NCBI GenBank assembly: GCA_965198225.1
Contig: CBDAOY010000007.1
Span: 990,045-1,054,044 of the forward strand
DNA from: Terriglobia bacterium
Lineage (GTDB): Bacteria; Acidobacteriota; Terriglobia; 20CM-2-55-15
DNA: 64,000 nucleotides
Direction of reading: 5' to 3'
Shown here: piece after piece, positions 8,005 through 63,656 of the stretch
Numbering within the stretch: position 1 is the stretch's first letter
How the letters are laid out: each line of letters starts with the position of its first letter
Notes under the pieces: model-generated
What the model was told of the DNA's origin: nothing
Seen by the model: the letters and a program-made list of their open reading frames with translations, nothing else
Database searches by the model: none
Translations under genes and position numbers: made by a program

Positions 8005-8081
8005 CTCTTCCCTCCGTTGCCCGGCAGATGTATGAACGCCGGGCTGATTCCATTTCTACGGGAGTGTCGGCGTTGACGGAA

Positions 8082-34704: not shown

Positions 34705-34979
34705 CTAGTGACCTGTAACAGTGCTATCGGTACCAGCGTTCGGCGGAACGGCGTCGGATTCTAGGAGTGACGCTCGAGCCAATGCTGTTTCATTGCGAGG
34801 GCGTTGCGACACCGAAGACGGCGCCGTTCCGCCGAACCCTTCGGGCCGATGGGGGTTGCGGGCGATCTCTTTGTCGGAAGCCGTCACCGATGAAAGAGCA
34901 TCGCTTTCCGTCTCCCTCCTCGACCTCGCCCGCAAGACCCATCGGCGATGGTGCCGATAGCACTGCTACAGGCCACTAG
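34705..34979 (+). mobile_element. 275-bp MITE-like element, copy 2
   Basis: Same element as 25414..25688, with four substitutions. It starts 22 bp after the stop codon of the deacetylase gene. Confidence 0.7.
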
Positions 34980-45077: not shown

Positions 45078-45256
45078 GGGGTGTCTCCTGATTCAATGCG
45101 AAGGGCAAGTTCTCCGAACGAATCATTTGATCGACTTTTCTTCAGCCGATATTGTAAGCGAAGTCACCGAGATGGGAAGGGTAGCGTGGATGTCAAAGAC
45201 GAGAGAGGTGAGGGGCGCCGGCAGACGATGACGCGACCTGCCGGCGTCTGCGCCTT

Positions 45257-45915
45257 ATCCCGGGCGTCGACGCATCTCTTCCCGGGTGATGAATCCATCA
45301 TCGTCCGCGTCGAGGCGGTCGAAGGCCTCAGTCGGTCGGGTCCACTCGTCACGAGAAACCTTGCCGTCGCCGTCTTCATCCATCTGGAGCATCGCGGCTC
45401 CCCGGCCACGTCCGCCTCTGCCCGGGCGGGAGTTCTGCATCTCTTCGAGAGTGATGAAGCCGTCGCCATCGGCGTCCATGGTCTCGAACATCTGCGCGGG
45501 ACCCGGAAACTCCTGCTGCGACACGCGTCCATCGCCATCGCTGTCGAGCCCCTGGAAACGGGCTTGAGGGTCTGCGCCTCTTCCGCCTCTATCCCGGGCG
45601 TCGCCATCTCTTCCCGAATCCATCATCGTCCGCGTCGAGGCGGTCGAAGGCCTCAGTCGGTCGGGTCCACTCGTCACGAGAAACCTTGCCGTCGCCGTCT
45701 TCATCCATCTGGAGCATCGCGGCTCCCCGGCCACGTCCGCCTCTGCCCGGGCGGGAGTTCTGCATCTCTTCGAGAGTGATGAAGCCGTCGCCATCGGCGT
45801 CCATGGTCTCGAACATCTGCGCGGGACCCGGAAACTCCTGCTGCGACACGCGTCCATCGCCATCGCTGTCGAGCCCCTGGAAACGGGCTTGAGGGTCTGC
45901 GCCTCTTCCGCCTCT
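45257..45915. repeat. Tandem direct duplication (334 bp + 325 bp) inside the EF-hand coding region
   Basis: 45257..45590 and 45591..45915 are identical by eye except for a roughly 9-10-nt indel cluster at the start of each unit (..GACGCATCTCTTCCCGGGTGATGAATCC versus ..GCCATCTCTTCCCGAATCC). Confidence 0.85.
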
Positions 45916-46746
45916 GCCGCGGCCGCCCCCGAATTGCCGCTGGATTTCGTCACGAGCGAGGAGACCATCATCGTTTCGATCGAGCCGGTCGAACGTCTCG
46001 CCGTCGCCCGTCCACTCTTCCCGTGAGATTGTACCGTCCTCGTTCGTGTCCATGACGCCCATACCGCCCGCAGTCCCGGGCCTCTGCCCCGGCCGAGGGC
46101 GCATACCACGCATGCCGCGGCCGCGACGCTGTCCCTGTTCCTGTCCGTAGGCGGTGATCTCCCCTCTGAGAGCGACCTCGAGCGCTGCCCTGGCTTCGGG
46201 GACATCGAACCCGGCCGGCCCGGGGCGTCCCTTGAAGGCGATGGTGCCGTCGGAGCCCACGACATAGATCCGGTCGGGAAACGCGGCGTACGCATTCGCC
46301 GTCCGGTCGTCGATCTTGTCCAGAATGGTCGGCATCGAGATGTCCAAGGCGGTCGTACAGATGTTGGCTGCTTCCTGGCGCTGCTCGTCGGTTTTGGCTT
46401 GTTCGATCAGGATGCCGTCGATAACATTCGCCGCTCCGAGGTTGCCGTCGGTGGGATGCGCTTCTCGAATGTAGACGAAGAAGAAATTGGCGCGGTCCTT
46501 GTAAGCCTGGTACCAGTTTTCGATGTCCACGACATCGCGGCGGAACGGGCCTCAGGTATAGCTGGCGAAGATCAGCGCGGTCGGTCTGCCCGTCATCTCA
46601 GAAAGCGTAATCTTTTGCTTTCCGTCTTTTGTACTGAGCGTGAAATCAGGCGCCGTATCTCCAGGCGTGGGGCCGCCGCCTCGCCGCTGGGCCGTGGCAG
46701 GGCTCACCAGGACGAGGACCAATAACGCAGACGCGAATGTTCTCAT
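45589..46746 (-). CDS. Candidate selenoprotein: secreted deiodinase-like thioredoxin-fold domain (in-frame TGA = Sec) fused to EF-hand repeats
   Basis: Track ORFs 46552..46788 and 45589..46530 are in one frame. Read through TGA 46554..46552 they give ..TALIFASYT-U-GPFRRDVVDIENWYQAYKDRANFFFVYIREAHPTDG... The ATG at 46746 is preceded by GGAGGAG and is followed by signal peptide MRTFASALLVLVLVSPATAQ. There are five intact EF-hand loops plus one truncated loop. Confidence 0.6.
46521..46537 (-). promoter_or_regulatory. Candidate bacterial SECIS hairpin
   Basis: The RNA CGAUGUC-GUG-GACAUCG starts 14 nt after the UGA. It is a 7-bp perfect stem with G/U in the apical loop. Confidence 0.4.
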
Positions 46747-47431: not shown

Positions 47432-47539
47432 AACGGGGGCAGAGCCCCCATTTCCCTCTTTCGTTCTCAACTTATTTCTGTTTTGGGCAGCGTCCGACGA
47501 CGCTTCAAAACGATCTTGAGCTTGACAGAAAGCCACCCT

Positions 47540-47555
47540 ATGTAGAAATCTACAT
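47540..47555. promoter_or_regulatory. PadR-type operator ATGT-N8-ACAT (ATGTAGAAATCTACAT)
   Basis: A perfect 16-bp palindrome 4 bp upstream of the padR ATG and 12 bp downstream of a TTGACA (47522..47527). ATGT-N8-ACAT is the operator pattern reported for PadR-family repressors. Confidence 0.5.
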
Positions 47556-47558
47556 TCG

Positions 47559-47864
47559 ATGCCTCGAAACTACATGACATATCCGTCCGGTCTGGTCCTG
47601 CAGGCAATCGCTTCGGGGCATCGGTATGGTTTCGATGTGATGGATGTGACGGGATTGCCGAGTGGTACGGTTTACCCGGCACTTCGGAAGCTGGAACGAG
47701 AGGGCTATGTCCGTTCCAGGTGGGAAGGCGAAGATGTGGCCCGCCAGGCAGGGCGTCCACCGCGGCGTTACTACGAGGTTAGCGGCCCTGGCTCGGCGGC
47801 CTTGACCCAGCTGCTGAAACGGTTTCCAGGACTGGCCCGGGCCCTTGCCGCGGAGGTCTTGTGA
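47559..47864 (+). CDS. PadR-family transcriptional regulator
   Basis: LVLQAIASGHRYGFDVMDVTGLPSGTVYPALRKLEREGYVRSRWE..GRPPRRYYEVS. Confidence 0.88.
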   Translation: MPRNYMTYPSGLVLQAIASGHRYGFDVMDVTGLPSGTVYPALRKLEREGYVRSRWEGEDVARQAGRPPRRYYEVSGPGSAALTQLLKRFPGLARALAAEVL

Positions 47865-48475
47865 GGTGGGCAGGCGGCGAGCGGTCTCTCCGCGTCTGCC
47901 TGTTGTGGATTCGCGCTCTGTCGTTCCTCGTCCCGCCCCCGGGCCGGGACGAATGGATGCGGGAGTGGCGTGGCGAGCTTCTGCATCACTGGAGTGAGTT
48001 CGAGACAGGAGTTCAAAAGTCCCGTGCTGCAAGATTCGATTTGTTCCTACATTCGATGGGCGCCTTGCCTGATGCACTGTGTCTGCTGCGTCAGGAGTGG
48101 AGACTGGACATGCTGATGCAGGATCTGACCTATGCGGTACGGACGCTCGGCGCTCGACCGGGCTTCACCTTCGTAGTGATTTTCATTCTGGCGCTGGGTA
48201 TCGGGGCCAACACCGTCGTGTTCAGCGTCGTCGATGCCGTCCTGTTTCGACCCCTACCGTTTCCCGAGCCGGAGAGGCTGGTTGCGATCTGGGACGAAAA
48301 CACCCAAAAGTCGATGCTTCGTCAGGGTCCGGCGCCCGGCAATCTGCTGGACTGGCGTGACCAGTCACGGGTGTTCGATGGTATCGGAGCCTGGTACGCG
48401 GGCGAGCCCAGGACTGTGCGCGACGAGTCCAGTGCGGAGAAAGTGTCCGCCACTATAGGATTTTATTATGTCTAA
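47861..48475 (+). pseudogene. ADOP-type (duplicated MacB/FtsX-like) permease gene, truncated after ~197 codons by island insertion
   Basis: MLMQDLTYAVRTLGARPGFTFVVIFILALGIGANTVVFSVVDAVLFRPLPFPEPERLVAIW..NLLDWRDQSRVFDGIG matches the ADOP N-terminus. Similarity ends at ..AEKVSA (about 48451), where AT-rich foreign sequence supplies a stop. Confidence 0.75.
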
Positions 48476-48535
48476 TAATATCCATAAGTCTTATTTATAT
48501 CAACAGTATATCGTCCTAGACAATCCAGCGCCGTC

Positions 48536-48544
48536 TGGTATAAT
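48536..48544 (+). promoter_or_regulatory. Extended -10 element TGGTATAAT upstream of the integrase
   Basis: A TGnTATAAT match about 70 nt upstream of the integrase ATG, within the AT-rich junction. Confidence 0.35.
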
Positions 48545-48613
48545 CCAAGCCTGTTGGGGGATATATTGGGGGAGTGCTGGAGTGCCTCTGCCCCATCGGT
48601 CGAGGGCTCTGCA

Positions 48614-49792
48614 ATGGCCATTCACAAACTCTCCCAACGCAAGGTAGACACCGCCGGTCCCGGCAAATACGAAGACGGCGGCGGGCTCCGCTTGGTGGTG
48701 TCCAATTCAGGCGCCAGGAGATGGGTCCTGCGTTACACCGTCCACGGCAAACGCCGGGAAATGGGTCTGGGCCGTTATCCCGATGTCGGGTTGGCCGATG
48801 CCCGCACGCAAGCGCTACGGCACCGGAGGCAGTTGGCGACGGGCGTAGATCCCATCGCAGCCCGCCGGGCGGCCCCGGAGACGCTACCCACCTTCACCAT
48901 CTGCGCCGCCCGGTATATCCGGGCCCATCGACGGAGTTGGCACAATGCCAAGCACGCGCGGCAATGGGTCCGGAGCCTGAAGACCTATGCCCGGCCCGTC
49001 ATCGGGGCCAAACGGGTCGACGCCATTGAGACTGAAGACATTGTAAAGATACTCTCTTCGATCTGGAACACCAAGACCGAAACGGCCAAGCGCGTGCAGG
49101 GGCGCATCGAAAATGTCCTGGACTTCGCCGCCGCGCACCAATACTGCGGTCCCCTGAACCCGGCCCGCTGGCGGGGCCATCTGGACAAGTTGCTCCCGAA
49201 GCCCTCCCGGGTGAAGCAAGTCACCCACCACCCGGCCATGCCGTATCCCGAGGTGGCGGACTTCCTGCAGGAGCTGTCCGGACACCGGAGTGTATCGGCG
49301 CAGGCGCTGCGGTTTTTGATCCTGACCGCCACGCGCACCAGTGAAGTCTTAGAGGCGCAGTGGCCGGAAATCGATCGGACCGCCGGTATATGGATCCTTC
49401 CCGCCTCCCGGATGAAAGCCCGACGGGAACATCGAGTTCCCTTATCGGATGCGACCCTGGCGGTTCTGGAAGACCTACCCCGCATGGCAGGCCACCCGTA
49501 TGTCTTCGCCGGATCTCGCCACGGACGCCCTCTGTCGAACATGGCCCTACTGAAATTGATGCGAGACATGGGATATTGCGTTGAGGGTTCCCGGGCTCAC
49601 TACGTGCCGCATGGATTTCGCTCCAGTTTTCGGGATTGGTCCGGCGAGGTGTCGAGCTTCCCGCGAGAAGTTGCGGAAATGGCCTTGGCCCACGTGGTGG
49701 AGAACAAGGTGGAAGCGGCCTACCGGCGGGGGGATCTGTTCGCCAAACGGCGCAGCATGATGCAGGCCTGGGCCGACTACCTCAAGAAGTAG
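48614..49792 (+). CDS. Tyrosine recombinase / P4-type integrase (DUF4102 arm-binding N-terminus)
   Basis: MAIHKLSQRKVDTAGPGKYEDGGGLRLVVSNSGARRWVLRY..GRYPDVGLADAR. Catalytic region TATRTSEV, HGFRSSFRDW, AYRRGD. Confidence 0.9.
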   Translation: MAIHKLSQRKVDTAGPGKYEDGGGLRLVVSNSGARRWVLRYTVHGKRREMGLGRYPDVGLADARTQALRHRRQLATGVDPIAARRAAPETLPTFTICAARYIRAHRRSWHNAKHARQWVRSLKTYARPVIGAKRVDAIETEDIVKILSSIWNTKTETAKRVQGRIENVLDFAAAHQYCGPLNPARWRGHLDKLLPKPSRVKQVTHHPAMPYPEVADFLQELSGHRSVSAQALRFLILTATRTSEVLEAQWPEIDRTAGIWILPASRMKARREHRVPLSDATLAVLEDLPRMAGHPYVFAGSRHGRPLSNMALLKLMRDMGYCVEGSRAHYVPHGFRSSFRDWSGEVSSFPREVAEMALAHVVENKVEAAYRRGDLFAKRRSMMQAWADYLKK

Positions 49793-50066
49793 AAGGGCGG
49801 GTGCGCAAGGTCGACGGGCGGCCAACAATTCATGCATTCCGATGATTCCTTGAAGGAGCCCACTGCTTCCGAGGTGTGAAAGAATTCAGGCTGGTGCGGA
49901 TTCGACGCGGAAGTGGTCGGCGGAGTGAAAGGAGATGCGACAGAATCTGAGGATCTACGATTCCCGACCGAACCCCAGTGGGGCTAGTGTAGGCCGTCAC
50001 CAAAGGGCACCGCGGACTCGGTCGATGTGACTTTGATCAGGGAAAATCATGGACGGAACGGGTCCC

Positions 50067-50708
50067 TCAATGGATCGTCGGCTTCTCCACGCCGATGGTG
50101 GACAGTGCGTGTTGGCGGGCTCGCGTGCAGGCAACCACAACGGCATGAAGCTCTTTCTCCGCGATCCGTGAGAGTTCCCGCACGTTCTTGAGGCTCCGCG
50201 CCAGATCCATCTCCGAGCGCGACGATGTTCTCTCCAGACACTCCACCATGCTGTGCATCATGGCGTTGATCTCCCCGAGATTGTCCATGGCTTCGTGAGC
50301 CCGTTCGGGGAGATCCAGCACCTCCTCGGCACCGAACAGGCCGTCGATGAAACCTTCCAGCTCTTCCATGCGGGTGCGGCAGAGGCGACTCAGATCATCG
50401 AGCTCCGCCTTGGCGGCCATCGGTGTCAAACGGAACGGCCGGGTTCCCGATTGATGCTTTGCCAATTCGTTCCAGAGGCCCATGAGAGCCTCAAACAGCT
50501 CGTTGGCGGCAGCGACATCGTCAAACTTCGGCAGTTCTCCTCCCCAGAAAGCTGCTACGGTCGGGAGGGGCGACGCATCAAGATTGGGACTGGCGATGTT
50601 GCCGAGGAAGCGTGTGCGCACGACATGGAATGGAGTCGGACAGGCATAACCGTCCAATAGCCCGCGGACTCGTTCGTCGCCCTGATATCTGTGGGAACGT
50701 TTCTTCAT
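50067..50708 (-). CDS. UPF0149/YecA-like family protein
   Basis: LDGYACPTPF..ASPLPTVAAFWGGELPKFDDVAAANELFEALMGLWNEL resembles the UPF0149 N-terminal pattern (recollection). Confidence 0.45.
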   Translation of the reverse strand: MKKRSHRYQGDERVRGLLDGYACPTPFHVVRTRFLGNIASPNLDASPLPTVAAFWGGELPKFDDVAAANELFEALMGLWNELAKHQSGTRPFRLTPMAAKAELDDLSRLCRTRMEELEGFIDGLFGAEEVLDLPERAHEAMDNLGEINAMMHSMVECLERTSSRSEMDLARSLKNVRELSRIAEKELHAVVVACTRARQHALSTIGVEKPTIH

Positions 50709-50795
50709 GCCCGATTAACTTCCGGCCGGCGTTGTGCCATTTCACCTTGTCCCTGCGGAAGCAGATTAGTCCGAAGAAGTTCGAGAATTTCCCGT

Positions 50796-51380
50796 TTACG
50801 TCCCACAGTTCTGGTAGTCCGAGGCCATACACGTGCGCGCCCACTCAATGGCGCGGCTGATCTGGGCACGGGTCATTTCACGTTCAAGGTTGCCCCGCGA
50901 CTCCTCGGGCCCAACGCCGGCGACGCTGACCCTCCCATTGGCGCTGGCGATATTGAACCACATGTGCGCGAGCACGTCGTCCTCGATGCCGCCCAAGCCG
51001 TTGTAGTACATCAACCCGAGGTTGAACTGCGCGCTCGCGTGCCCCTGCTCGGCCGCCATGCGGTACCATCGCGCCGCTTCCGCATCGTCTTCGATGACAC
51101 CCTCGCCGTGGGCATACATGGTTCCGAGATTGAATTGCGCACGCGCGTCCCCCTGCTCGGCCGCTATGCGGAACCACCGCATTGCTTCACGGTCATCCTC
51201 CATGGCGGCCTCGTCATCGTCGTAGGTGCTCCCGAGGCTGTCCGGCGTATCCGCGTTCCCCTGCTCGTCTTCGGCCTGAAAGCGTCCTGGTTCGTCCTGC
51301 GCCGGAACACATGCCGCGGCCAGCAGCCAGGAGCCGCAGAGCAGTGTCATCGCGATCCATCGGTTACGGTGTTTCTTCAC
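50796..51380 (-). CDS. Sel1-repeat (TPR-like) protein, secreted, possibly a lipoprotein
   Basis: Signal sequence ..LLAAAC. Three Sel1 repeats (AMRWFRIAAEQGDARAQFNLGTMYAHGEGV.., AARWYRMAAEQGHASAQFNLGLMYYNGLG..). Confidence 0.85.
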   Translation of the reverse strand: MKKHRNRWIAMTLLCGSWLLAAACVPAQDEPGRFQAEDEQGNADTPDSLGSTYDDDEAAMEDDREAMRWFRIAAEQGDARAQFNLGTMYAHGEGVIEDDAEAARWYRMAAEQGHASAQFNLGLMYYNGLGGIEDDVLAHMWFNIASANGRVSVAGVGPEESRGNLEREMTRAQISRAIEWARTCMASDYQNCGT

Positions 51381-51620
51381 GGCAGCCTCCCATGTCCTGG
51401 TGATCTTATGCCTTGAGACTGGATCGTCGATTGTAGGCGATCCAGGACGCGACCCTACAAGTACTTGGCGACTCTAGTGTAATGGGATCCGCAGGTTACG
51501 TTGCGTGCCGAACACGGATCACCGCTGGAGTGTGGACACAGCGGAAGGTTCACCGTGCCGACGGACGGGTAAGCCAGCCACCTTGAGCAGGATCATCTTG
51601 GGACGCCATCGGCGGCACAC

Positions 51621-51971
51621 CTAACGTCGGCGGCCGCAGGACACGAATATCTCCACGTCGGCCCTCAGCGCGCGCTCCGTGTTGTGGCTGAAGGCACCCC
51701 GGGCCGCTTTGAAGTAGGCGGCCAGTTGGTCCCCTGCCTCCGCAGCGTATTCAACACGGAACGAGAGCGTTCTCGAGCGGGTTGGTCTGCCCGATCGCCT
51801 TGTGCAGCGTGGCGATGCTGGAGACGTAGCGGCGCACCGTCGCCGGGGCCTTGACGCGCGCCATGTCGTCGATGAAGGCGACCAGGGTGGGGGCGTTGGC
51901 GGGCAACGCCGGCACGACCTGCTGCCGGCAGCCAGGATCTCCATCTCGCATGTCATCTCTGAAATCAGCAT
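51621..51971 (-). pseudogene. Fragments of a tyrosine-recombinase N-terminal (SAM-like) domain, frameshifted and in permuted order
   Basis: The frame A segment ..CRQQVVPALPANAPTLVAFIDDMARVKAPATVRRYVSSIATLHKAIGQTNPLENA is followed by the frame B segment ..AAYFKAARGAFSHNTERALRADVEIFVSC. In intact integrases of this type the B-like segment precedes the A-like segment. Confidence 0.45.
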
Positions 51972-52009
51972 CGGGCGGCCTCCGGTTCAGTCGAAAAAGG
52001 CCGCGAATT

Positions 52010-52041
52010 TTACTCGCGATAATTCCAGTTATCGCGAGTAA
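52010..52041. repeat. Perfect 13-bp-arm palindrome TTACTCGCGATAA-ttccag-TTATCGCGAGTAA
   Basis: Read directly from the sequence. It lies about 40 bp upstream of the integrase fragments. Confidence 0.6.
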
Positions 52042-52611
52042 AGCCCCGAGATAACGCTTTCCTCGCCGTTGATCACACGGCGCGGCGGATTTTTTTCGAT
52101 CCGGCGCCTGCTGCCCATCAGCTCAGGGGGGGCGGGACGCAACGAGGTCTGTCTACCGAACGGGGGAGTTGTGGTGCCTTCTACGGCCCGAATGAGCGCG
52201 ACCAGATATCGCCAGCGAACCGGAGAAAGGGACATCGACTTGGCAGAACACCGTGAAATCGCGGCGTCACGCGTCACAGGGATAGACACGAAAGCGGTGG
52301 CGAAGGACTGAGGTGGCCGTATCGATACGGTCGTGGCGGCGCGCTCACCCGCAGCCGTGGCTGCGCCGATGATTTGTCCATGGGGCGATCCGCCGCGTGA
52401 CCGCAAGCCGCTGGCGATGAGTGCCTGCCCGGTTCACGGAAATCGGGCTATGGGCTCTGCCGTGCAGCGCCGCCCGCCTGTTCCGTGCCGAGCCCGTTGG
52501 CAGGACATGAGCAGTTTCGCCGCCGATACCGTCGATCAACGTGCGACCGTCATCACCGGTCCCCGGGTGTCGGTCCGCGGACGTCAATTCACAAGGGCGA
52601 CGCGCTACCGC

Positions 52612-53751
52612 ATGCGCGTGCTCTCTTTTTCGCTGCAAGGCCTTAAAACCGGGTTATTTCTGCTATTCGCATCACTGCTGGCCGTGTCGGCGCCGATTCA
52701 GGCCAGCGCGCAGGCGAACAGCCCTCCGGCGGTGACGGGGCCAACCAGCGTCGACTACGCCGAGAACAGCGAGGAGACGGTGGCCACGTATATCGCTACG
52801 GACCCGGAGGCCGAAGCAATCGCGTGGAGCGTGTCCGGGACGGACCATGCGCTGTTTTCCATCACTGCGGGTGTCCTGGAGTTCCTGAGCCCGCCGAACT
52901 ACGAGAGGCCTATCGACGAGGGCGAAGACAACGCGTATGAGGTGGGCGTCACGGCCACGGATTCCTCCGGGGCGGCCGCCACCGTTGCGGTCACCGTGAC
53001 GGTAACAGACGTCAACGACCCGAACATCGTCCTCATCATGGCGGACGATGTCGGTTATGAGGCCTTTGGGGCATACGGTAGCGCACAGTACAGAACGCCG
53101 CGAATTGATGAGCTTGCAGCCGCGGGAGTTCGCTTCACGAACGCTTACTCAAACCCGGTATGCACCCCGAGCAGAGTTGCCTTGATGACGGGTAAGAGCA
53201 GTGTCAGGAACTATGTGGATTTCGGAGTTCTACTCCCCGGAGAATACACGATTACTGATCTCTTTAGTGGGGCCGGATACGCAACGGCCATCGCCGGAAA
53301 GTGGCAGCTTCACGGTAGTGTCGTAGGTAGTGACGTAGTGGCTGGTGTCCCTGCCGGAACCGGATTCGACACGTATTCCTTGTGGAATACAGCCAACACG
53401 GGTCGTAGTCGCTACTGGAATCCTTCCATCGAACGCGACGGTGAAATCATCGATCTGGGCAGCGAGGATTACGGGCCCGACATATTCACGAATTTCCTGC
53501 TGGAATTCATAGAGTCCAACAGAGATAAACCGTTTTTCGCCTACTACCCGATGGTGCTTCCTCATGATCCGTTCGGCTCGCCGCCGCAAGCCCAATGCGT
53601 CGATACCGCTGACGGACAGTGCAATTTCGAGGACATGGTCGCGTATCTCGATTACAACGTCGGCCGCATACGCGACAAGCTGGCGGACCTGGAGCTACTC
53701 GACAACACAATCCTCATATTCACCTCCGACAACGGAACTCACGCACGCTGA
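52612..53751 (+). CDS. Signal peptide + cadherin-like domain + sulfatase N-terminal part (continues in the +1 frame; see 53738..58837)
   Basis: MRVLSFSLQGLKTGLFLLFASLLAVSAPIQASA. VTVTDVNDPNIVLIMADDVGY. Formylglycine motif CTPSR. The frame ends ..IFTSDNGTHAR*, in the middle of the sulfatase domain. Confidence 0.8.
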   Translation: MRVLSFSLQGLKTGLFLLFASLLAVSAPIQASAQANSPPAVTGPTSVDYAENSEETVATYIATDPEAEAIAWSVSGTDHALFSITAGVLEFLSPPNYERPIDEGEDNAYEVGVTATDSSGAAATVAVTVTVTDVNDPNIVLIMADDVGYEAFGAYGSAQYRTPRIDELAAAGVRFTNAYSNPVCTPSRVALMTGKSSVRNYVDFGVLLPGEYTITDLFSGAGYATAIAGKWQLHGSVVGSDVVAGVPAGTGFDTYSLWNTANTGRSRYWNPSIERDGEIIDLGSEDYGPDIFTNFLLEFIESNRDKPFFAYYPMVLPHDPFGSPPQAQCVDTADGQCNFEDMVAYLDYNVGRIRDKLADLELLDNTILIFTSDNGTHAR

Positions 53752-56700
53752 TCTGATTTCAGAACTCGGGGGAGAAATGATCCATGGGGATAAGAACATG
53801 CCCAACAATGGCGGCACGCGGGTACCGCTGATAGTCAGCGTTCCAGGAGGTGAGGGGGGACGGGTGTTCGACGACCTGATCGACTTCACCGACTTTCTCC
53901 CGACTCTGGCTGATGCGGCAGGTCTTACGATTCCTGACGTCAATATGCTGGACGGCGTGAGTTTTTGGGACAGGCTTCAAGGCCGAACCGGCCAACCGCG
54001 GGAATGGATATATACCTATTACTTCCCACGTCCGTTCGCCGATAGGTTCGACAATCCGCAACGTCATCCAGAGGCGTCGTATGTCCGAGACAAGCGGTAC
54101 CAGCTCTACGGAACAGGAGAGTTCTTCGACATTTCCGTAGACCCTCACCAAGTGCATCCGTTGCCGAGTGACGATGAAGAGTCCAGCGCCGCCCGTACCA
54201 AGCTGCAAGCGGTTCTCGACTCGATGCCGGGGAGAGGTGAGGAGATTTACCCATATTTGATAGGAACTGTCCCGGACTCTGAGCCGCGCCCGCGATGGCG
54301 GCCCGTCCTGTCGAAAGCAACTGTGAACGGCGGCCAATTGACGCTCACTTACGCCGGAATTCTGGACTCAAGAGAAGCGCCTCCCGCAGATTCCTTCATT
54401 GTGAACGTTGATGGTTCCGAGCGTGCGGTCTCCACAGTTTCGATAAGCAAAACAGCGGTTACGCTTACACTCGCTTCGGCGGTTACAGTTGGCCAGACGG
54501 TGACGTTGAATTACACGCCGGGAACGAATGCGATTCAGCACGCGAACAGGCCATTCGGGCACAAAGCGGCACCCCTGGTTCGCCAAGGGGTGACGAACAA
54601 CACTGTGGACACGACGGCGCCGGCGGTGTTGTCGATCACGAGCGACGCGACGCACCCGACGAAGAACGCTTTCACGGTGACGATAACCTTTTCGGAGGAG
54701 GTGAGGGGACTCACGGCGGGGGAGATCGCGGTCACCAATGGCACGGGCTCGAACTTTGCGGGCACAGGCGCGAGCTACATGCTCGACATCGAACCCAGCG
54801 ACGATATCGAAGCCGACGTGACGGTCCGGGTTCCGGCCGATGCGGCGATGGACGCCGCGAACCTCGGCAACATCGAGGGGATCGAGACCTTCGCGGTGGA
54901 CACCCAGGCGCCGGCGGTGTTGTCGATCACGAGCGACGCGACACACCCGACGAAGGATGCTTTCAGGGTGACGATCACCTTTTCGGAGGCGGTGACGGAG
55001 CTCACGTCGCAGGATATCGCGGTCATGAACGGAGTGGGCTCGAACTTCGCGGGCACGGACGCGCGCTACACGCTCGACATCGAGCCCAGCGCCAATACCG
55101 AAGACGATGTGACGGTCCGGGTTCGGGCCAACGCGGCGGTGGACGGCGTGAACATCGGCAACGTCGAGGGGATCGAAACCTTTGCGGTGGACACCCAGGT
55201 GCCGAGGGTGTTGTCGATCACAAGCGACGCGGCGCACCCGACGAAGGATACTTTCACGGTAACGATCACCTTTTCGGAAGAGGTGACGGGGCTGACGGCG
55301 AGTGAGATCGTGGTCAGCAATGGCCGTGGCTCGAACTTCGCGGGCACGGGCGCACGCTACACGCTCGACATCGCTCCGAACGCCAACCTTGAAGCCGATG
55401 TGACGGTCCGGGTTCGAGCCAACGCGGCGGTGGACGGCGCGAACAACAGCCACGTCGACGAGGGCGAGACCTTCGCTGTGGACACGCGGGCACCGGTGTT
55501 GATGAGCGCTGCGGTGGATGGCGACACGCTGACGCTGAGCTATGGGGAGGCGCTGGGCAACCCGACACCGGAGCCGGGCGATTTCACGATGAATGTGGAG
55601 AGCGCTGGGCGGAGCGTTTCCAGGGTGGCGGTGAGCGGAAGAGCGGTGACTTTGACGCTTGCCTCGGCCGTGGCGCATGGCGAGACGGTGAGAGTGAGCT
55701 ACAGCCCGGGGACGAACCCGATCCAGGACGCGGTGGGCAACCAGGCTCTGGGACTGAGCAACGCGTCGGCCACCAACACTACGGATGCACCCAACACGGA
55801 TCCGATGATCACGAGTCCGGGGCCGTTCAATGTCACTGAGAATCAAGCGCGGGTGACCCGGCTGATGGCGGCCGACGCCGACCCGGGGGACGAGGTCACC
55901 GGCTATACGCTTGTCGGCGGAGCCGATCGGGCCCAGTTCACGGTCGGTGAGGATACCGGAGATCTGGGCTTCCGGGCGGTTCCGAACTTTGAAGCGCCCA
56001 CGGATGCCTTCAGTAACGATCCGCCAAGTGGGGCAGGAGACAACGAGTACATCGTGGTGGTCCAGGTCAGCAGCGGGGCAGGAACGCGGGTGCGGACGGC
56101 GGAACAGACGATTCGCGTGCGGGTGAGTGACGTGGAGGAGCTTCCAGCGGCGCCGGAGGAGCCGACTTTTCCGAGGGCGACGCCGGACAGCCTGACGGTG
56201 GCGTGGACGGAGCCGGACAACACCGGGCCGCCCATCACCGGCTATGACGTGCAATACCGGGAAGGCGTCAGCGGCGGCTTCACGGATGCGCCGCACTCCG
56301 GGACGGCCCAAACCACAACGCTCATGGGGTTGAGCGAGGGCACGGCCTACCAGGTGCAGGTGCGGGCGAGGAACGCGGAAGGAACAGGTGACTGGTCGGA
56401 GCCGGGCGAAGGACGGACCGTGGCCCCGCTGAGGGTTCGGATGACGCCGGAGCTGGAGCCGCCGGTGGAGGGCCCGTTCTCGGTGAGGTTCAGCTTTTCG
56501 GAGACGGTGACGGGTTTCAGCGGAAGCGACATCGAGACGGGTCAGGACCTTGCCTGCATGGACGATCAGAACAACCCGGTGTTCTGCAACCCCGGCTTTG
56601 CGGCATTCGAGACCACGGATAGCCGGGTCTTCACCACCCGCGTGACCCCGAGGACCGGCGGGGTGGCCAATAACTACAAGCTCACGCTCACGGTGCGTGC

Positions 56701-58837
56701 CGGCGGAGTGAGATCGTCTGTCGGCAATAAGCCTAACGAGGAGGCGACGCTTGAGGTGCCGGTGGCGCCGCCGGGGGTGACGGTGCCGATCGGGCCGCTG
56801 GGGCTGACGGCGAGCGGGGGAAACGGCCAGGTGGCGCTCCGGTGGAATGCCCCGGGGGACACCGGGGGCGCCGCGATGGTCCGCTACGAATACCGGGTGG
56901 CGGATGGCGTCGGCGGGGAGTTCGGCGCCTGGATGCGGGTGGATGCGGCGGCGAGGTCCGCGCCGGTCCCCGATCTGACGAACGGCCGGGAATACGTCTT
57001 CGAGCTGAGGGGGGTGAACGCCCTGGGCTACGGCGGGGTGGAGACCGTGCGAGCCACCCCGGTGCGCACCACCACCGGGGACGGAGGAGGCAGAGGAGGC
57101 GGCGGGGGTGGGGGCGCCCTCCGCGGGACAGTGCCGGGCGCGCCGACGAACCTGACGGCTGAGGGCGGGGACGGCCAGGTCGTACTGAGTTGGGACGCCC
57201 CGGAAAGCGACGGCGGGGCGGCGATCACCGATTACGAGTATTGGAACGGCGGGAGTCGGACCTGGACCTCCATCGGTTCCACGAACACCACCCATACGGT
57301 CACCGGCCTCGACAACGGAACGGAATACACCTTCCAGGTGCGGGCGGTCAACCGAAGGGGCCGGAGCCGGGCTTCCAACCGGGCTACGGCGACGCCGGAC
57401 GTGTTTATCCTGGACTTTGCGCATTTCGCCAATGGCGCGTCCATTACCTCCGATCTGGTGCTGGTGAACCCGGGAAGCATCCCGATCCGGCCCGTCGTTT
57501 ATTTCTACGACACCGGGGGCAATCCAATTAACGCCGAATCGGTGGTGGACGTCACCGGTGATCTGACGGTCGCCGAGGACGGTGCCTTGACGGTCCTGGC
57601 GGATATGGAGCCACTCAGAGAACTCACGATTGCGACCCACGGTCGGGGAGCGCTCGTGAGTGGATCGGTGAAGGTTGTCTCTTACGGTCCTGTCGGCGGG
57701 TTCCTGCGCTATAACGTCCCGGATGTCGGCGTGGCCGGTGTGGGAGCGAGCCCGCCCACACGGGATGTCCTTTTCCCGGCCCGCCGCGAGGCGGGAGGCA
57801 TCAATACGGCGGCGGCGATCCAGAACCTGGGAGAGGCACCGCTGGAGGTGAGCTGCCGATTGATGCGCGCGGGCGCGGTGCTGGAAGAGGCGGAGATCGC
57901 TCTTGCGCCCAACGGGCAGTCGAGTGTCTTTATCGACGAACAATTCCCCGCCACCGATACGTCCGACTTCGCGGGGTCGATGCACTGCGACGCCCCAGCG
58001 ACGTTCACCGGTGTGGCGGTCGAGATGGATGCTGTCCACCGCATCTTTACGGCACTGCCGGTGGTTTCCGCGGATCGGCTCAGCGGCGGCAGTGCGACGG
58101 TCCTGGACTTTGCGCATTTCGCCAATGGAGGTTCCATCACCTCCGATCTGGTGTTCGTGAATCTGAAGACCCGTCCGAGCGGGCCCGCGCCCACTCCCTT
58201 TCAGATGGCCATCCCTCCGAGCCGCCCTGCCATCCATTTCTACGACACGGAGGGCAATCCGATGGCGACCGAATCGGTGGTGGACATCACCGGCGATCTG
58301 GAAGTCACCGAAGACGGCGCCCTGACGGTCCGGACGGAGATGGAGCCCTTGGGCGTGCTCACGATTTCGACTCACAGCCGGGGCGATCTGGTGACCGGAT
58401 CGGTGAAGGTGGTCTCGGAGGGTCCCATCGGCGGGATGCTCCGCTTTGACCTCCCCGGCATCGGCGAGGCCGTGGTGGGGGCCAGCGAGCCCCTCAGCGA
58501 CTTCCTCTTCCCGGTGCGCCGCCAGGAGGGAGGCATCAACACGGGGGTCGCGATCCACAACCTGGAATCGAGTCCGGAGTTGGTGCGCTGCGAACTGCTG
58601 CGCGAGGGCGTGCTGCTCGATACCGTGAGCATCCCTCTTGAGGCCAACGGGCAGACCTCCGGGTTCATCGACGGGCGATTCCCCAGCGTCGATACGTCCG
58701 ACTTCGTGGGGTTGGTACGCTGCAATGCAGTCGGTGAGGGGCTCTTCAGTGCCGTCGCCCTGGAACTGGATGCCGCCAACCGCATCTTTACCACACTGCC
58801 AGTGATCCCGCTGCAAGAGACGATGTCTCAGGAATAG
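53738..58837 (+). CDS. Sulfatase C-terminal part + SwmB-like, Ig-like x3, cadherin-like, FN3 x3 and two ~220-aa C-terminal beta domains (giant surface protein)
   Basis: The frame-2 sequence THADLISELGGEMIHGDKNMPNNGGTRVPLIVSVPGG..DFLPTLADAAG continues the sulfatase fold, followed by the repeat domains. The track ORF start at 53564 is upstream filler. Confidence 0.8.
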   Translation, partial: LTHADLISELGGEMIHGDKNMPNNGGTRVPLIVSVPGGEGGRVFDDLIDFTDFLPTLADAAGLTIPDVNMLDGVSFWDRLQGRTGQPREWIYTYYFPRPFADRFDNPQRHPEASYVRDKRYQLYGTGEFFDISVDPHQVHPLPSDDEESSAARTKLQAVLDSMPGRGEEIYPYLIGTVPDSEPRPRWRPVLSKATVNGGQLTLTYAGILDSREAPPADSFIVNVDGSERAVSTVSISKTAVTLTLASAVTVGQTVTLNYTPGTNAIQHANRPFGHKAAPLVRQGVTNNTVDTTAPAVLSITSDATHPTKNAFTVTITFSEEVRGLTAGEIAVTNGTGSNFAGTGASYMLDIEPSDDIEADVTVRVPADAAMDAANLGNIEGIETFAVDTQAPAVLSITSDATHPTKDAFRVTITFSEAVTELTSQDIAVMNGVGSNFAGTDARYTLDIEPSANTEDDVTVRVRANAAVDGVNIGNVEGIETFAVDTQVPRVLSITSDAAHPTKDTFTVTITFSEEVTGLTASEIVVSNGRGSNFAGTGARYTLDIAPNANLEADVTVRVRANAAVDGANNSHVDEGETFAVDTRAPVLMSAAVDGDTLTLSYGEALGNPTPEPGDFTMNVESAGRSVSRVAVSGRAVTLTLASAVAHGETVRVSYSPGTNPIQDAVGNQALGLSNASATNTTDAPNTDPMITSPGPFNVTENQARVTRLMAADADPGDEVTGYTLVGGADRAQFTVGEDTGDLGFRAVPNFEAPTDAFSNDPPSGAGDNEYIVVVQVSSGAGTRVRTAEQTIRVRVSDVEELPAAPEEPTFPRATPDSLTVAWTEPDNTGPPITGYDVQYREGVSGGFTDAPHSGTAQTTTLMGLSEGTAYQVQVRARNAEGTGDWSEPGEGRTVAPLRVRMTPELEPPVEGPFSVRFSFSETVTGFSGSDIETGQDLACMDDQNNPVFCNPGFAAFETTDSRVFTTRVTPRTGGVANNYKLTLTVRAGGVRSSVGNKPNEEATLEVPVAPPGVTVPIGPLGLTASGGNGQVALRWNAPGDTGGAAMVRYEYRVADGVGGEFGAWMRVDAAARSAPVPDLTNGREYVFELRGVNALGYGGVETVRATPVRTTTGDGGGRGGGGGGGALRGTVPGAPTNLTAEGGDGQVVLSWDAPESDGGAAITDYEYWNGGSRTWTSIGSTNTTHTVTGLDNGTEYTFQVRAVNRRGRSRASNRATATPDVFILDFAHFANGASITSDLVLVNPGSIPIRPVVYFYDTGGNPINAESVVDVTGDLTVAEDGALTVLADMEPLRELTIATHGRGALVSGSVKVVSYGPVGGFLRYNVPDVGVAGVGASPPTRDVLFPARREAGGINTAAAIQNLGEAPLEVSCRLMRAGAVLEEAEIALAPNGQSSVFIDEQFPATDTSDFAGSMHCDAPATFTGVAVEMDAVHRIFTALPVVSADRLSGGSATVLDFAHFANGGSITSDLVFVNLKTRPSGPAPTPFQMAIPPSRPAIHFYDTEGNPMATESVVDITGDLEVTEDGALTVRTEMEPLGVLTISTHSRGDLVTGSVKVVSEGPIGGMLRFDLPGIGEAVVGASEPLSDFLFPVRRQEGGINTGVAIHNLESSPELVRCELLREGVLLDTVSIPLEANGQTSGFIDGRFPSVDTSDFVGLVRCNAVGEGLFSAVALELDAANRIFTTLPVIPLQETMSQE
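54605..55477 (+). repeat. Three tandem 291-bp (97-aa) Ig-like domain repeats within the giant CDS
   Basis: Units start at GTGGACAC (54605, 54896, 55187) and the array ends at 55477. The protein repeat is VDTxAPxVLSITSDAxHPTKxxFxVTITFSEEV.. Confidence 0.85.
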
Positions 58838-58873
58838 ACGGACGCGCCTGACAGGCTAGGCGACGGCGTCGCC

Positions 58874-59803
58874 ATGAGCTTCGAACCGGGCGTCGACGCC
58901 CAACGCGGGAGAGCCCGAGTCAGGGGGGCACGGACCACGGCATGCCTGGACGGTTCACGGCGCGCCGGCGGTAGACATCCGATCCGTGGACACCGTGGGC
59001 CGGGGGCGCCCCCGGATGCATACCGGAGGCCGGCGGGGGTCCATCATGCCTGGGATGACTGTGATGTCGATGTTGCCGTGCTCGGTCGCGTGCCTCGTCG
59101 CAGCCGGCATCCGCGGTGTTGCGGAATGGCTCCACGCGTTGAGGCTCGACGACAGCTCGCGCTGGCTGGGCCCATCCTCCGAAAACCTCTGCTATCCGTA
59201 TCGCGAAAGGCGCTGGCCTCCGGCGAGCCGGAAGATCCCCCCGGCTGGGAACGGATCTATGAAGGCTCGTTCCTGGAAGCAGCGCTGGTCACACAGCTTT
59301 CCGGCGACTTTCCCGGCCCGGTGCTGGCCGTGGTTTCGGTGCCCTTTTACTCGGCAGACCGGCAGCGGATTTTAGTCCCGCGAGGGGCGCGAGTCGTGGG
59401 CACGGCTCAGGCCGTGGCGAATCAGGACCAATCGCGCCTTGCCGTCAGTTTCCACCGTTTGATCTATCCGGACGGGCGTTGGGTGTCGCTGGAATTCAAC
59501 GGCCTCAATCAGGTCGGCGAGGGAGCCTTGAAAGATCAGGTCAACCGCCATTACCTATCCACGTTCGCCGCAGTCGGCGCGGTCGGCATCCTGAGCGGGC
59601 TGACCTTGCGCGGCTCCAATCCCTATGGCGGCGGGCAGCAGAGCCTTCAGGCTGGGGCCGGACAAGGGCTCGGCCAGGCCGCGACGCGCATCCTGGATCG
59701 TTTCCTGAATCGTTTGCCCACCCTCACCATTCGGGCCGGGCATCGGCTTCGCGTTTGGTTCACTTCCGACGTGCTGGTTCCCCGGCCCCAACAAGGAGAT
59801 TGA
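58874..59803 (+). CDS. VirB10/TrbI-like protein, C-terminal barrel domain only (N-terminus not credible, probably truncated)
   Basis: GSFLEAALVTQLSGDFPGPVLAVVSVPFYSADRQRILVPRGARVVG..RLAVSFHRLIYPDGRWVSL..LPTLTIRAGHRLRVWFTSDV. No TM or Pro-rich N-terminal region was found. A possible start is the ATG at 59126. Confidence 0.6.
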   Translation: MSFEPGVDAQRGRARVRGARTTACLDGSRRAGGRHPIRGHRGPGAPPDAYRRPAGVHHAWDDCDVDVAVLGRVPRRSRHPRCCGMAPRVEARRQLALAGPILRKPLLSVSRKALASGEPEDPPGWERIYEGSFLEAALVTQLSGDFPGPVLAVVSVPFYSADRQRILVPRGARVVGTAQAVANQDQSRLAVSFHRLIYPDGRWVSLEFNGLNQVGEGALKDQVNRHYLSTFAAVGAVGILSGLTLRGSNPYGGGQQSLQAGAGQGLGQAATRILDRFLNRLPTLTIRAGHRLRVWFTSDVLVPRPQQGD

Positions 59804-59804
59804 A

Positions 59805-60722
59805 ATGAAAATGTACCGAAAAGCCTTCACCGTTGTTGTCATGGTTCCGATCCTCATCATGCTCACCACCACGCCCGCGCATGCCCTCTTCGGCTCGATC
59901 CTTGCGGGCATCCAACGCGCCCAGATGATCGCCAATCAGGGGATCCAGATCTACAAGGACACAATGGCGAAGATCACCCTGGACGGCCAATTGACCCAGA
60001 TGACGGATCAGTTCAACCACCTGCAAGAACAGGCGCTCGGAAGTGTCGGGGCGCTCACCGATCCGTTTACGCAGTTGGCTTCGGTGCCGACGCAGTTCAT
60101 CGGCGTGGGTCTCGCGTGGAAGAACGATTTTACCGGCGTTGCCGCGGAGCTTGTCTCGTCGGTGGAACAGATGGGCGAAACCGGCACGAGCTTTACCGAG
60201 TCGTGGCGTGATCGGCTCACCGCCGCCGACACGGTGACTGAGAGCGACATCATTGGTCTGTACAACTCTCAGCGGCCCGAAATGGCCCAGAGAGCGGCAC
60301 GGGGCTACCTTGCGGCGCGAGAGGAAGGCGAGAAACGCCTGGTCCTCGATCACGCCACGAGCGATGCGGCGGCGAATCTCATGATTGCGGCGCGTGAGGC
60401 TGTGGCCTCCTACGAAGGACTGCGAAACAACACCAATACTTCCAACACCGCGCTCGCTCAATCGCAGGTGGCCGGGACCCTGACCCAGGGGAACCTCACC
60501 GCGGCCATGGCGCAGTTGATGGCGTTCGATACAGCAAAGGCGGCAGCGGAAGATTACGAACGCGAGATCGCCCGGCGCGACGCGCTGGCGGAATGGGTCG
60601 AGGCCCAGCGCCGCGCGCGCGTCACCTTCGACGCGCAACAGGCCGGGCTCGATGCCCGGCGCGATGCGATGCGGGAAGGGTTGCTCTTCCAGATTCATCC
60701 GTTCTATCGCGGCGGGAACTAA
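59805..60722 (+). CDS. VirB5/TrbJ-like type IV secretion protein
   Basis: A signal peptide followed by long helical/coiled sequence, in the position between the VirB10-like and VirB6-like genes. Assignment is by layout and context. Confidence 0.45.
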   Translation: MKMYRKAFTVVVMVPILIMLTTTPAHALFGSILAGIQRAQMIANQGIQIYKDTMAKITLDGQLTQMTDQFNHLQEQALGSVGALTDPFTQLASVPTQFIGVGLAWKNDFTGVAAELVSSVEQMGETGTSFTESWRDRLTAADTVTESDIIGLYNSQRPEMAQRAARGYLAAREEGEKRLVLDHATSDAAANLMIAAREAVASYEGLRNNTNTSNTALAQSQVAGTLTQGNLTAAMAQLMAFDTAKAAAEDYEREIARRDALAEWVEAQRRARVTFDAQQAGLDARRDAMREGLLFQIHPFYRGGN

Positions 60723-60734
60723 CCCGGTACGCCG

Positions 60735-61736
60735 ATGCAAATCCAACTCGACCCGGCGATCCCGGCCCAGGTCCCCCCGGAGCAGCTTCGGGATTTCAAG
60801 TCGTTTCTCGATACCGTTCTCGAGGGAATCATCGGCCCGGCGGCCAACCCTCTGCTGGAGACCGGAAACCTGCTGTGGACAGGGTTAGCCGCAATCGTGG
60901 TGGTGTTGACCGGCGCGAAGATCGCGTACAGCGGGAACATTCAGCCGTGGGACATCGTCCGGCTCGTCATCGGTCTGTGGGTGCCGTGGGTCATGTTGCA
61001 GTTCTACTCGACGCCCATCCCGGGGCTGGTCTTCACGTTCCCGGGGGTCATCACGGCGGGCGGGAATTGGTTGCACAATTTCTTGCTTGCGGACACGGCC
61101 TGGTCCATGCATAGCGAACTCGGAAACCTCGTCACCAACCTCGCGGAGGATCTTCAGGTGCAAGCGAATCAGGGGAGTATTCTCGGCGTGCTCACCGGCG
61201 GCGCTCACGCCGTGCTGACGCTCGTTGCCGGAGCCGTCATCATGCTGTTCGTCGTGACCTGTCTCGTCGTTTTGTTCGCGGTTACCTACGCTCAGGTGAT
61301 CTGGGCCCAGATCGCCCTGGCGATCCTCACGCTCCTGGGTCCGATCTTCATTCCCTGGCTGGTGTTTGAGCCGATGAGCTTCATGTTCTGGGGATGGTTC
61401 CGGGCGATGCTGACGTATTCGCTCTACGCCGTGATCGCCGGGGCCGTCATGCGCGTGTTTTCCGGCGTGGGCCTCGCCTACGTCACGACCCTGGGCACCG
61501 CCCAACTCAACTGGCAGTCCATTGGCGATCTCGGTTTGTGGCTCCTGGCGGTCCTGCCCCTGTTCGTGGCCGGGATCCTGTCATCGCTCAAGTGCGGGGA
61601 GCTCGCCTCGATGCTCGTCACCGGTGCCGGTGCATCGGGAAGCGGGCTCATGGGCATGGCGGGGATGGCGGGAACGGTTGCCACCGGCGCCAGCGTGCGC
61701 GCGGCCGCGAAAGCGGGGGCGGGAGGTCTGAAATGA
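60735..61736 (+). CDS. VirB6/TrbL-family type IV secretion membrane protein
   Basis: A polytopic membrane protein of 333 aa with a Gly/Ala-rich C-terminus (GAGASGSGLMGMAGMAGTVATGA), as in TrbL. Confidence 0.7.
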   Translation: MQIQLDPAIPAQVPPEQLRDFKSFLDTVLEGIIGPAANPLLETGNLLWTGLAAIVVVLTGAKIAYSGNIQPWDIVRLVIGLWVPWVMLQFYSTPIPGLVFTFPGVITAGGNWLHNFLLADTAWSMHSELGNLVTNLAEDLQVQANQGSILGVLTGGAHAVLTLVAGAVIMLFVVTCLVVLFAVTYAQVIWAQIALAILTLLGPIFIPWLVFEPMSFMFWGWFRAMLTYSLYAVIAGAVMRVFSGVGLAYVTTLGTAQLNWQSIGDLGLWLLAVLPLFVAGILSSLKCGELASMLVTGAGASGSGLMGMAGMAGTVATGASVRAAAKAGAGGLK

Positions 61737-63345: not shown

Positions 63346-63395
63346 TGGGGTTCAAAAGCAATGGGAAATGTGGCAGGATTCGAGGGATTTTTTCT

Positions 63396-63656
63396 TGCAA
63401 CACCTTCCGATCCAGGATGCAACACCCTCAGAGAGGGGGGTGTTGCAGGATTCGGACAAAAGGTGTTGCAATGCCACATCCTCCTATCTCCTTAATTCTT
63501 TTTTGGTTATCCCATACCAATCGGCCTCCACCGTGCCGATCCAGCGAAATCGGGGAGGACGATAGCGACCCCCCTAAAAAGCGCGGGGTCATGTGGCCCG
63601 GATAGAGGCGAGGTGTTGCACGCCTCTATCCGGCCCCATGAGGGTCGCTATCGTCC
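63396..63656. promoter_or_regulatory. oriT-like non-coding region: five TGCAACACC iterons plus nested perfect inverted repeats
   Basis: Iterons lie at 63396..63404(+), 63418..63427(+), 63438..63447(-), 63462..63470(-) and 63612..63620(-). Outer inverted repeat GGACGATAGCGACCC (63557..63571) / GGGTCGCTATCGTCC (63642..63656). Inner inverted repeat CCGGATAGAGGCG (63598..63610) / CGCCTCTATCCGG (63621..63633), with an iteron in its loop. Confidence 0.5.

Follow-up and report, generated by a model that had tools for sequence, protein, structure and literature searches.

The Terriglobia locus described here raises the question of how an island led by a P4-type integrase came to lie inside a gene for a permease. 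The window, by which we mean the whole stretch of 64,000 nucleotides (nt) that was analysed (contig CBDAOY010000007.1 of assembly GCA_965198225.1, positions 990,045 to 1,054,044), holds a gene pair for a PadR-family regulator and an acidobacterial duplicated orphan permease (ADOP, TIGR03434), and the permease gene breaks off at AT-rich DNA that is followed by an integrase gene. Islands with P4-type integrases are reportedly found in tRNA and transfer-messenger RNA (tmRNA) genes, and the initial annotation of the window had described an island that was not at a tRNA target and whose choice of a permease gene would be unusual. As set out below, the island of a tRNA-Ser-specific P4-type integrase very probably entered the ADOP gene by site-specific recombination at a look-alike of its usual site. 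The host lineage belongs to uncultured bacteria, apparently Acidobacteria, whose mobile elements have been little studied.

The ADOP Gene Is Cut by Island DNA

The interrupted gene pair and the left end of the island comprise the following features:

47559-47864 (+): PadR-family regulator gene, the upstream partner of ADOP (PF03551, E 6e-10; weak TIGR03433 padR_acidobact match)
47861-48475 (+): 5' fragment of the ADOP permease gene, an open reading frame (ORF) of 204 aa (TIGR03434 N-terminal match)
48434-48450 (+): attL core GCGGA-GAAAGTG-TCCGC, a 5-bp inverted repeat flanking a 7-bp spacer
48439-48445 (+): putative crossover (overlap) region GAAAGTG, 7 bp, placed by the flank swap and by analogy with ICEBs1 (PMC3715440)
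48451-48613 (+): AT-rich left arm (P' arm) of the island
48614-49792 (+): gene for a P4-type (DUF4102-type) tyrosine integrase of 392 aa (PF13356, PF22022, PF00589)

The end of padR and the start of the ADOP ORF overlap by 4 bp. Residues 85-197 of this ORF match positions 1-111 only of the 803 positions of the NCBIfam profile TIGR03434 (E 4.6e-32), and the score of 111 bits stays far below the cutoff of 622 for a full-length match, which covers about 800 residues with duplicated MacB_PCD and FtsX domains. The 204-aa ORF is therefore an N-terminal fragment, the first quarter of an 892-aa permease. Its codons 1-197 are genuine, while the last seven codons and the stop codon (48473-48475, inside the AT-rich DNA) are supplied by the island. 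Directly after the residues SSAEKVSA, the GC content drops from 64% (48252-48451) to 34% (48452-48552), and DNA homology to the uninterrupted orthologous loci L085 and L086 ends at position 48453. The integrase gene begins 163 bp past the break. The domain and profile matches, the end of homology and the change in composition thus bear out what had been proposed for this junction, namely that the PadR/ADOP pair is intact up to about 48451, that ADOP is cut at codon ~197, that an abrupt switch to AT-rich DNA provides a stop, and that a P4-type integrase gene follows some 160 bp later.

The left junction, with PadR, the ADOP fragment and the integrase in the same order, recurs in three further loci. 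Two of them (L001, on a contig of 2.78 Mb, and L002) are ENA metagenome contigs about 99.9% identical to the window and with an identical integrase protein; in the third (L004), the 204-aa fragment is 99% identical and stands beside a frameshifted copy of the integrase gene. Since four assemblies share this junction and three related genomes lack the island at the site, the junction is not a contig mis-join, an explanation that had been named as one that would undo the proposed insertion.

The Missing 3' Part and the Attachment Sites

With the restored ADOP ortholog as the query, tblastn against the window and all loci detected no 3' part of the gene in the window. The missing 698 codons (P0241-P0243) were found at L088, L089, L095 and L096, in four other assemblies from the same population; the three 698-aa proteins came from the 90%-identity cluster of P0123. 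This 3' part opens with CGGAGAAAGTGTCCGC, the same 16 bp that close the 5' part, so that the window sequence 48435-48450 has an exact copy at 9993-10008 of L088 and L089, adjoining the rest of ADOP. When window 47861-48450 is joined to L088 10009-12097, an open ORF of 892 codons results, with neither stop nor frameshift, which aligns with the intact ortholog P0122 at 86.3% identity and with zero gap columns and is collinear with 892-aa orthologs carrying PF12704 and PF02687 twice. Downstream of the 3' part lie genes for a 117-aa ORF, an M14 peptidase, a radical SAM protein and an AMP-binding protein, and the same genes are present in the loci with an empty site. The attachment site and the remainder of ADOP beyond the island, both anticipated in the initial annotation, are thus identified. 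The insertion duplicated the repeat and nothing else, without the loss of a base, as is typical of conservative site-specific recombination. In annotation, the ORFs of 204 aa and 698 aa should be treated as a single pseudogene in two halves.

The junctions and the empty site read as follows:

attL (window): ...GTCCAGTG-CGGAGAAAGTGTCCGC-CACTATAGGATTTT
attR (L088): ...AACAATAACATATAT-CGGAGAAAGTGTCCGC-TACCCAGGTGACAACC
Empty site (L085): ...AGCG-CGGAGAAAGTGTCCGC-TACACAGGTGACAACC

The core GCGGA-GAAAGTG-TCCGC is formed by the ADOP codons for AEKVSA (Ala-Glu-Lys-Val-Ser-Ala); its inverted repeat is perfect, and it folds as a stem of 5 bp with a loop of 7 nt. To the left of the 7-bp spacer, attL has chromosomal and attR island sequence, and to the right of it attL has island sequence (TCCGC-C-ACTATAGG) and attR chromosomal sequence (TCCGC-T-ACCCAGG), the first differing base being 48451, which is C in attL and T in both attR and the empty site. 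This swap of flanks across 7 bp indicates that the strands were exchanged inside the spacer or at its edges; by analogy with the experimentally defined site of ICEBs1, the exact position would lie within these 7 bp. The spacers of attL and attR are identical, both GAAAGTG. Direct-repeat and pattern searches found a single copy of the junction repeat in the window. The predicted attP junction is ...AACATATATCGGAGAAAGTGTCCGCCACTATAGG..., and the predicted restored attB, with window-type flanks, is ...CCAGTGCGGAGAAAGTGTCCGCTACCCAGG....

Both arms of the island are AT-rich, and each contains a tandem pair of GGGGGA motifs. In the left arm, TTGGGGGA is found at 48554-48561 and 48566-48573, and the matching pair in the right arm is TGTGGGGGA..TTCGGGGGA (L088, about 9912-9935). 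Homologous pairs are present in L005, L090 and L094, as well as in both arms of L011 and L020. These motifs are probably arm-type binding sites of the integrase.

The Integrase Belongs to a Group with a tRNA-Ser Target

The integrase contains the domains Arm-DNA-bind_3 (PF13356, E 7e-24), Phage_int_M (PF22022, E 2.5e-27) and Phage_integrase (PF00589, E 4e-15), matches the integrase domain of NCBIfam PRK09692 (E 2e-46), and shows in translation the catalytic residues R..HxxR..H..Y, in TATRTSE, PHGFRSSFRDW, LAH and AAYRRG. Relatives were scanned with one genome per species. For the more distant ones, the 3' end of a gene for tRNA-SeC, Ala, Ser, Arg, Leu, Thr, Met or Lys, or of a tmRNA gene, is found at a distance of 150-250 bp. 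Nine of the 23 nearest genome relatives have the motif TGGCGGA-N7-YCCG at 162-194 nt upstream of the integrase gene (int), where TGGCGGA is the reverse complement of the tRNA-Ser end ...TCCGCCA; in a tenth (L005, 72% identical) the core is the same and the left side reads AAACGGA. In five loci (L010, L011, L015, L020 and L022), the strand opposite to int carries an intact tRNA-Ser gene 5-10 kb downstream, and each locus has a direct repeat of 14-17 bp of the tRNA-Ser 3' end upstream of int, that of L015 without the dyad. The closest relatives, L005, L090, L091, L093 and L094 (72-94% identity), carry CGGAG-RRR-TGTCCG at -174 to -179 from int; those from metagenomes are P0253 (82% identical; L090, L091 and L093) and P0252 (94% identical; L094). 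The group therefore inserts at the acceptor end of tRNA-Ser genes, with int at the island end far from the regenerated tRNA, and its core is GGCGGA-N7-TCCGCC, an inverted repeat around a 7-bp spacer.

The site in ADOP resembles this core closely. Compared with the relatives' core GCGGA-GAGGGTG-TCCGC, read as GCGGA/CGGA-GAGGGTG-TCCG in L091, L005 and L094, only two bases differ, both of them in the spacer, and the distance from the break to int (~175 nt) is the same as that from core to int in all relatives, whose core lies at -174 to -180 from the int start. The adjacent integrase presumably catalysed the insertion into ADOP. The earlier statement that the island is not at a tRNA target is correct for this copy, which has no tRNA within 45 kb of its junction and is flanked by ADOP, but it does not extend to the relatives, since L010, L011, L015, L020, L022 and L094 show the tRNA-Ser attachment. 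Likewise, the insertion into ADOP is real, but with a 17-bp copy of the core of the tRNA-Ser group as its site, the choice of target is less unusual than had been supposed. The window copy is an off-target member of the tRNA-targeting P4-type integrases.

The integrase P0253 was found in identical form in at least three genomic contexts (L090-L093; ERZ28763718, ERZ25074053). These have three different spacers (GAGAGTG, GAGGGTG and GAGGATG) and, as neighbours, an ISL3 transposase, AlpA and primase genes, or a second integrase, which suggests that insertions took place in tandem or serially, and at several tRNA-Ser genes.

The Canonical tRNA-Ser Site Is Empty in the Same Genome

One further feature of the window bears on the target of the integrase:

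3161-3248 (-): tRNA-Ser(cga) gene, the unoccupied canonical attachment site of the integrase group (ARAGORN)

This is the sole tRNA gene in the window and lies 45 kb from the ADOP junction, with the spacer GAGGGTG. The ADOP site matches both half-sites, whereas the right half of tRNA-Ser(cga), GGATT, shows no match. Over L094 positions 6311-9482, the identity to window 1-3172 is 100.000%. Past GCGGAGAGGGTG, which makes up the last 12 nt of tRNA-Ser(cga) of the window, L094 enters a sister island, and the left arm and integrase gene of this island share 93% identity with window 48434-49805 (94% for the integrase protein). Since the sister island occupies the same tRNA-Ser(cga), the canonical site is present but empty in the window. 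The sister island (L094 9471-12469) is found in a co-occurring strain, has the spacer GAGGGTG and differs in its cargo after int (DUF5131). The pair of sister islands should be useful for studying how attachment-site specificity drifts.

Uninterrupted ADOP Orthologs in Related Genomes

Uninterrupted orthologs, the comparison that had been proposed for this site, are available in three related genomes which share the gene order on the left-hand side and have no integrase at the site, one contig with an empty site being ERZ25072076 ctg245249:

L086/L087: flank 82-87% identical to the window at the nt level; ADOP intact, 892 aa (P0122)
L085: flank 91% identical at the nt level; ADOP reads through the break point (P0123); lacks the equivalent of window 47458-48113
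L003: flank 68-74% identical at the nt level; ADOP reads on; insertion element of ~310 bp located 21 bp past the break, and an in-frame TAA

In L085, a 656-bp deletion (at 9798-9800) takes out padR and the first 84 codons of ADOP. In L003, the insertion element (10597-10920) has the terminal repeat CCGCAGAATTTGTGGG and the target duplication CAGATTTTT, and the in-frame TAA is located near 10943. Because the ortholog has been inactivated independently in these two relatives, it looks dispensable. A related copy of the terminal repeat of the L003 element lies after the ADOP stop codon.

Three other views of the site were considered and rejected. The L003 element is not a relic of the island, as it has terminal inverted repeats and a target duplication of its own and no similarity to the island arms, and its location within 21 bp of the break is treated as a coincidence. 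Nor is the core a remnant of a tRNA gene, since its flank is in-frame ADOP coding sequence common to the empty-site orthologs. Finally, the ADOP family does not serve as a multi-copy target. The residues AEKVSA are found at this position in only 4 of 120 ADOP homologs, all four being orthologs of the target gene, and at the DNA level the full inverted repeat is limited to the lineage of the window and L085, with L086 reading GCTGAAAAAGTTTCCGCG and L003 GCCGAAAAGGTGTCTGCG. In the tblastn search of all loci with the restored ortholog, no ADOP fragment was found beside any relative of the integrase, and truncated N-terminal hits to ADOP stopped at the motif, if at all, only where their contig stopped.

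Probable Look-Alike-Site Insertion and Alternative Explanations

The closest precedent has been described in Bacillus subtilis, where the primary site of ICEBs1 is a 17-bp stem-loop of 5+7+5 in a tRNA-Leu gene (Menard & Grossman 2013, PMC3715440). Its secondary sites lie in protein-coding genes, the best of them differing from the primary site by 2-3 bp and the most used by 2 bp, and a mismatch between the spacers of element and target is expected, once the integrated element has been replicated, to leave differing spacers in attL and attR (PMC3715440). Insertions at secondary sites are reported to be at a selective disadvantage. In the case of ADOP, the adjacent integrase of tRNA-Ser type would have recognised GCGGA-GAAAGTG-TCCGC as a mimic of its family core. 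Strand exchange in the 7-bp spacer would then leave the 16-bp direct repeat at both junctions and cut ADOP after codon ~195 of 892, and the target gene would not be restored, unlike in an insertion into a tRNA gene. Both halves of the gene and the repeat between them are present, empty sites exist in relatives, and a primary site of the family exists in tRNA-Ser, whose core the used site resembles. The odd-looking choice of target is resolved in that the core, the spacer, both arms, the empty sites and the canonical tRNA-Ser site have all been identified.

Several observations weigh against look-alike-site insertion. The island is probably an integrative conjugative element (ICE), since it carries type IV secretion genes, and it has an integrase and direct-repeat attachment sites at both ends, although these ends are not contiguous on the sole contig holding both. 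On this contig, ERZ25069191 ctg587049, attL (L001, at ~47.3 kb) and attR (L088, at ~1,987.8 kb) share one orientation and are separated by 1.94 Mb, and an IS256-family element interrupts the island body at the equivalent of window 53622. On this contig the island has therefore ceased to be a simple contiguous insert. In the contigs with the right arm past its first 160 bp (L088, L089 and L095), only ~130 bp of the arm are left before fragments of the IS256 family, which at L088 abut the arm in opposite orientations, one of the three contigs having a further insertion sequence (IS) inserted; L096 is a contig of 2.3 kb starting within the right arm, and an intact right end of the island was found in no contig. 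The ends are separated either by IS-mediated rearrangements or by the path of the assembler through IS copies. In addition, the window stops among the genes for type IV secretion, short of the right end of its island, and no gene for a relaxase, VirB4 or coupling protein was found in the visible 15.5 kb of the island. The left half-site on the island side, taken from attR, is ATCGGA in place of the GGCGGA of the family. Finally, the excised circular form, searched for as the 26-mer of the attP junction, was absent from the JGI metagenome contigs, the only data scanned.

The identical spacers also differ from what ICEBs1 secondary sites lead one to expect, and they favour either a spacer that was already matched or a later homogenisation. 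In the former case, the island's own site would have carried GAAAGTG before its arrival and ADOP would be the best or primary target in this host, which refines the explanation by look-alike-site insertion rather than contradicting it, the counterpart being an accidental insertion of low efficiency by an element with a tRNA-matched spacer. Such retargeting is possible, though less likely than not. It agrees with the island being in ADOP while the canonical tRNA-Ser(cga) with its spacer GAGGGTG is empty in the same genome, and with a JGI contig (L103) carrying TGGCGGAGAAAGTGTCCGCCAC, that is, the left arm of the family, this spacer and this right arm. However, L103 has no integrase nearby, neither a free attP (in the JGI metagenome scan) nor a second host with the same insertion was found, and mismatch repair or later gene conversion could equalise the spacers as well. 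Moreover, the restriction of the full inverted repeat to the lineage of the window and L085 implies that such a specificity would lack a wide range of hosts. The stronger form, in which the 17-bp mimic in ADOP was the only perfect match of a naturally retargeted element and its effective primary site, we regard as rather unlikely; the spacer GAAAGTG would in this case perhaps have matched tRNA-Ser of a previous host. If true, the ADOP island and its sister in tRNA-Ser(cga) would be a natural before-and-after pair, with specificity shifted by two spacer bases.

A regulated interruption of ADOP, reversed by precise excision as in the phage switches of comK and sigK, was also considered. It would be compatible with the intact 892-codon ORF of the rejoined gene, which excision across the 16-bp repeat would restore exactly. 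Nevertheless, with attachment sites 1.94 Mb apart, IS fragments at the right arm, independent inactivation of the ortholog in L085 (deletion) and L003 (insertion element and stop) and no excised form detected in the JGI metagenome contigs, a switch is very improbable. An artefact or an event of another kind, be it a mis-join or an IS-mediated deletion or rearrangement which brought the island beside a broken ADOP gene, might be suspected from the fact that the samples are metagenome assemblies in which IS are abundant around the island and the ends lie far apart on one contig. This we consider hardly credible, as one and the same attL occurs in four assemblies of three samples and one and the same attR in four contigs, the break is precise to the nucleotide, duplicating 16 bp and costing no codons, the distance of ~175 nt from break to int is the one found in all relatives, and there is no IS end at the junction. 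Look-alike-site insertion therefore remains the preferred explanation.

Comparison with Known Systems

As with ICEBs1, a tRNA-specific element, here a probable ICE, is found inside a protein-coding gene, at a 5-bp inverted repeat around a 7-bp crossover spacer, and as with its secondary sites the target gene is not restored and impaired excision is to be expected. In contrast to ICEBs1, the insertion is a natural and fixed one in an uncultured bacterium, known here from sequence alone, the integrase is of the P4 type (DUF4102) and specific for tRNA-Ser, a site of the primary type is empty in the same genome, and the spacers of attL and attR are identical. The insertion is ordinary in kind and unusually well resolved, a natural case of a behaviour shown in the laboratory. 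It exemplifies what ICEBs1 would predict, in that a tRNA-specific element landed in a protein-coding 5+7+5 mimic, destroyed the gene and probably became trapped.

With islands of P4-type integrases in genes for tRNA and tmRNA (Islander database, PMC4383910, and Williams 2002, cited there) the element shares the domain architecture of the integrase, the location of int at ~175 nt from the core, direct repeats at the ends and AT-rich arms with tandem repeats. Unlike these, it has a protein-coding target and brings no replacement for the displaced part, so that the gene is destroyed. Finders of islands which start from tRNA genes would miss it. Other families of integrases are known from protein-coding genes, such as those of the islands at the 5' end of dusA (PMC4482086) and of SGI1 at the 3' end of trmE, for which a secondary chromosomal site is documented (PMC2297512, PMC8409611). 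Here, too, an island with a tyrosine integrase lies inside an ORF. However, in the dusA and SGI1 families a single conserved housekeeping gene is the target in hundreds of genomes and usually remains functional, whereas no relative of our integrase was found beside ADOP, and the site exists in one lineage of one ortholog. The target itself resembles a typical ADOP in having PadR upstream and 892-aa orthologs with duplicated MacB_PCD and FtsX domains; it is atypical in that only its first 197 codons are in the window and that the ortholog is also decaying independently in related genomes.

Island Body and Present State

The remainder of the island in the window contains these features, assigned by Pfam hits:

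49793-64000 (strand not assigned): island body, running off the window
50796-51380 (-): Sel1-repeat protein
52333-53751: sulfatase
53564-58837: giant fn3/Big_12 surface protein, 1757 aa
58874-59803: TrbI, type IV secretion
60735-61736: TrbL, type IV secretion
61394-62404: VirB8, type IV secretion

The island body has no homology to the DNA following ADOP in L085, L086 and L088. With 1.94 Mb between its ends and fragments of the IS256 family next to the right arm, the element is probably trapped, at least in the strain of ctg587049, and this probable immobilisation agrees with the selective disadvantage of ICEBs1 insertions at secondary sites. In the 1757-aa protein, a C-terminal domain of sulfatases is followed by SWM, Big_12, cadherin and fn3 repeats, and its gene contains tandem DNA repeats of 291 bp at 54605-55486. 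The high GC content probably accounts for a long antisense ORF at 54368-58816.

Other Observations

An exact 19-mer of the core was found in nine contigs of the JGI metagenomes, none of which is related to the window or has an integrase or ADOP gene. In L103, TGGCGGAGAAAGTGTCCGCCAC is located at 1959-1980, and L100, L101 and L104 share an AT-rich flank beside the core; these contigs may be relics of related elements or chance matches.

A miniature insertion element of 275 bp with terminal inverted repeats of 34 nt (CTAGTGACCTGTAACAGTGCTATCGGTACCAGCG) is present in two copies in the window, at 25414-25688 and 34705-34979, and three more copies, 83-98% identical, are found in the related locus L085. 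In the gene for an EF-hand/T4-deiodinase-like protein (45255-46295, minus strand), a tandem duplication of ~335 bp varies between the window and both L001 and L085.

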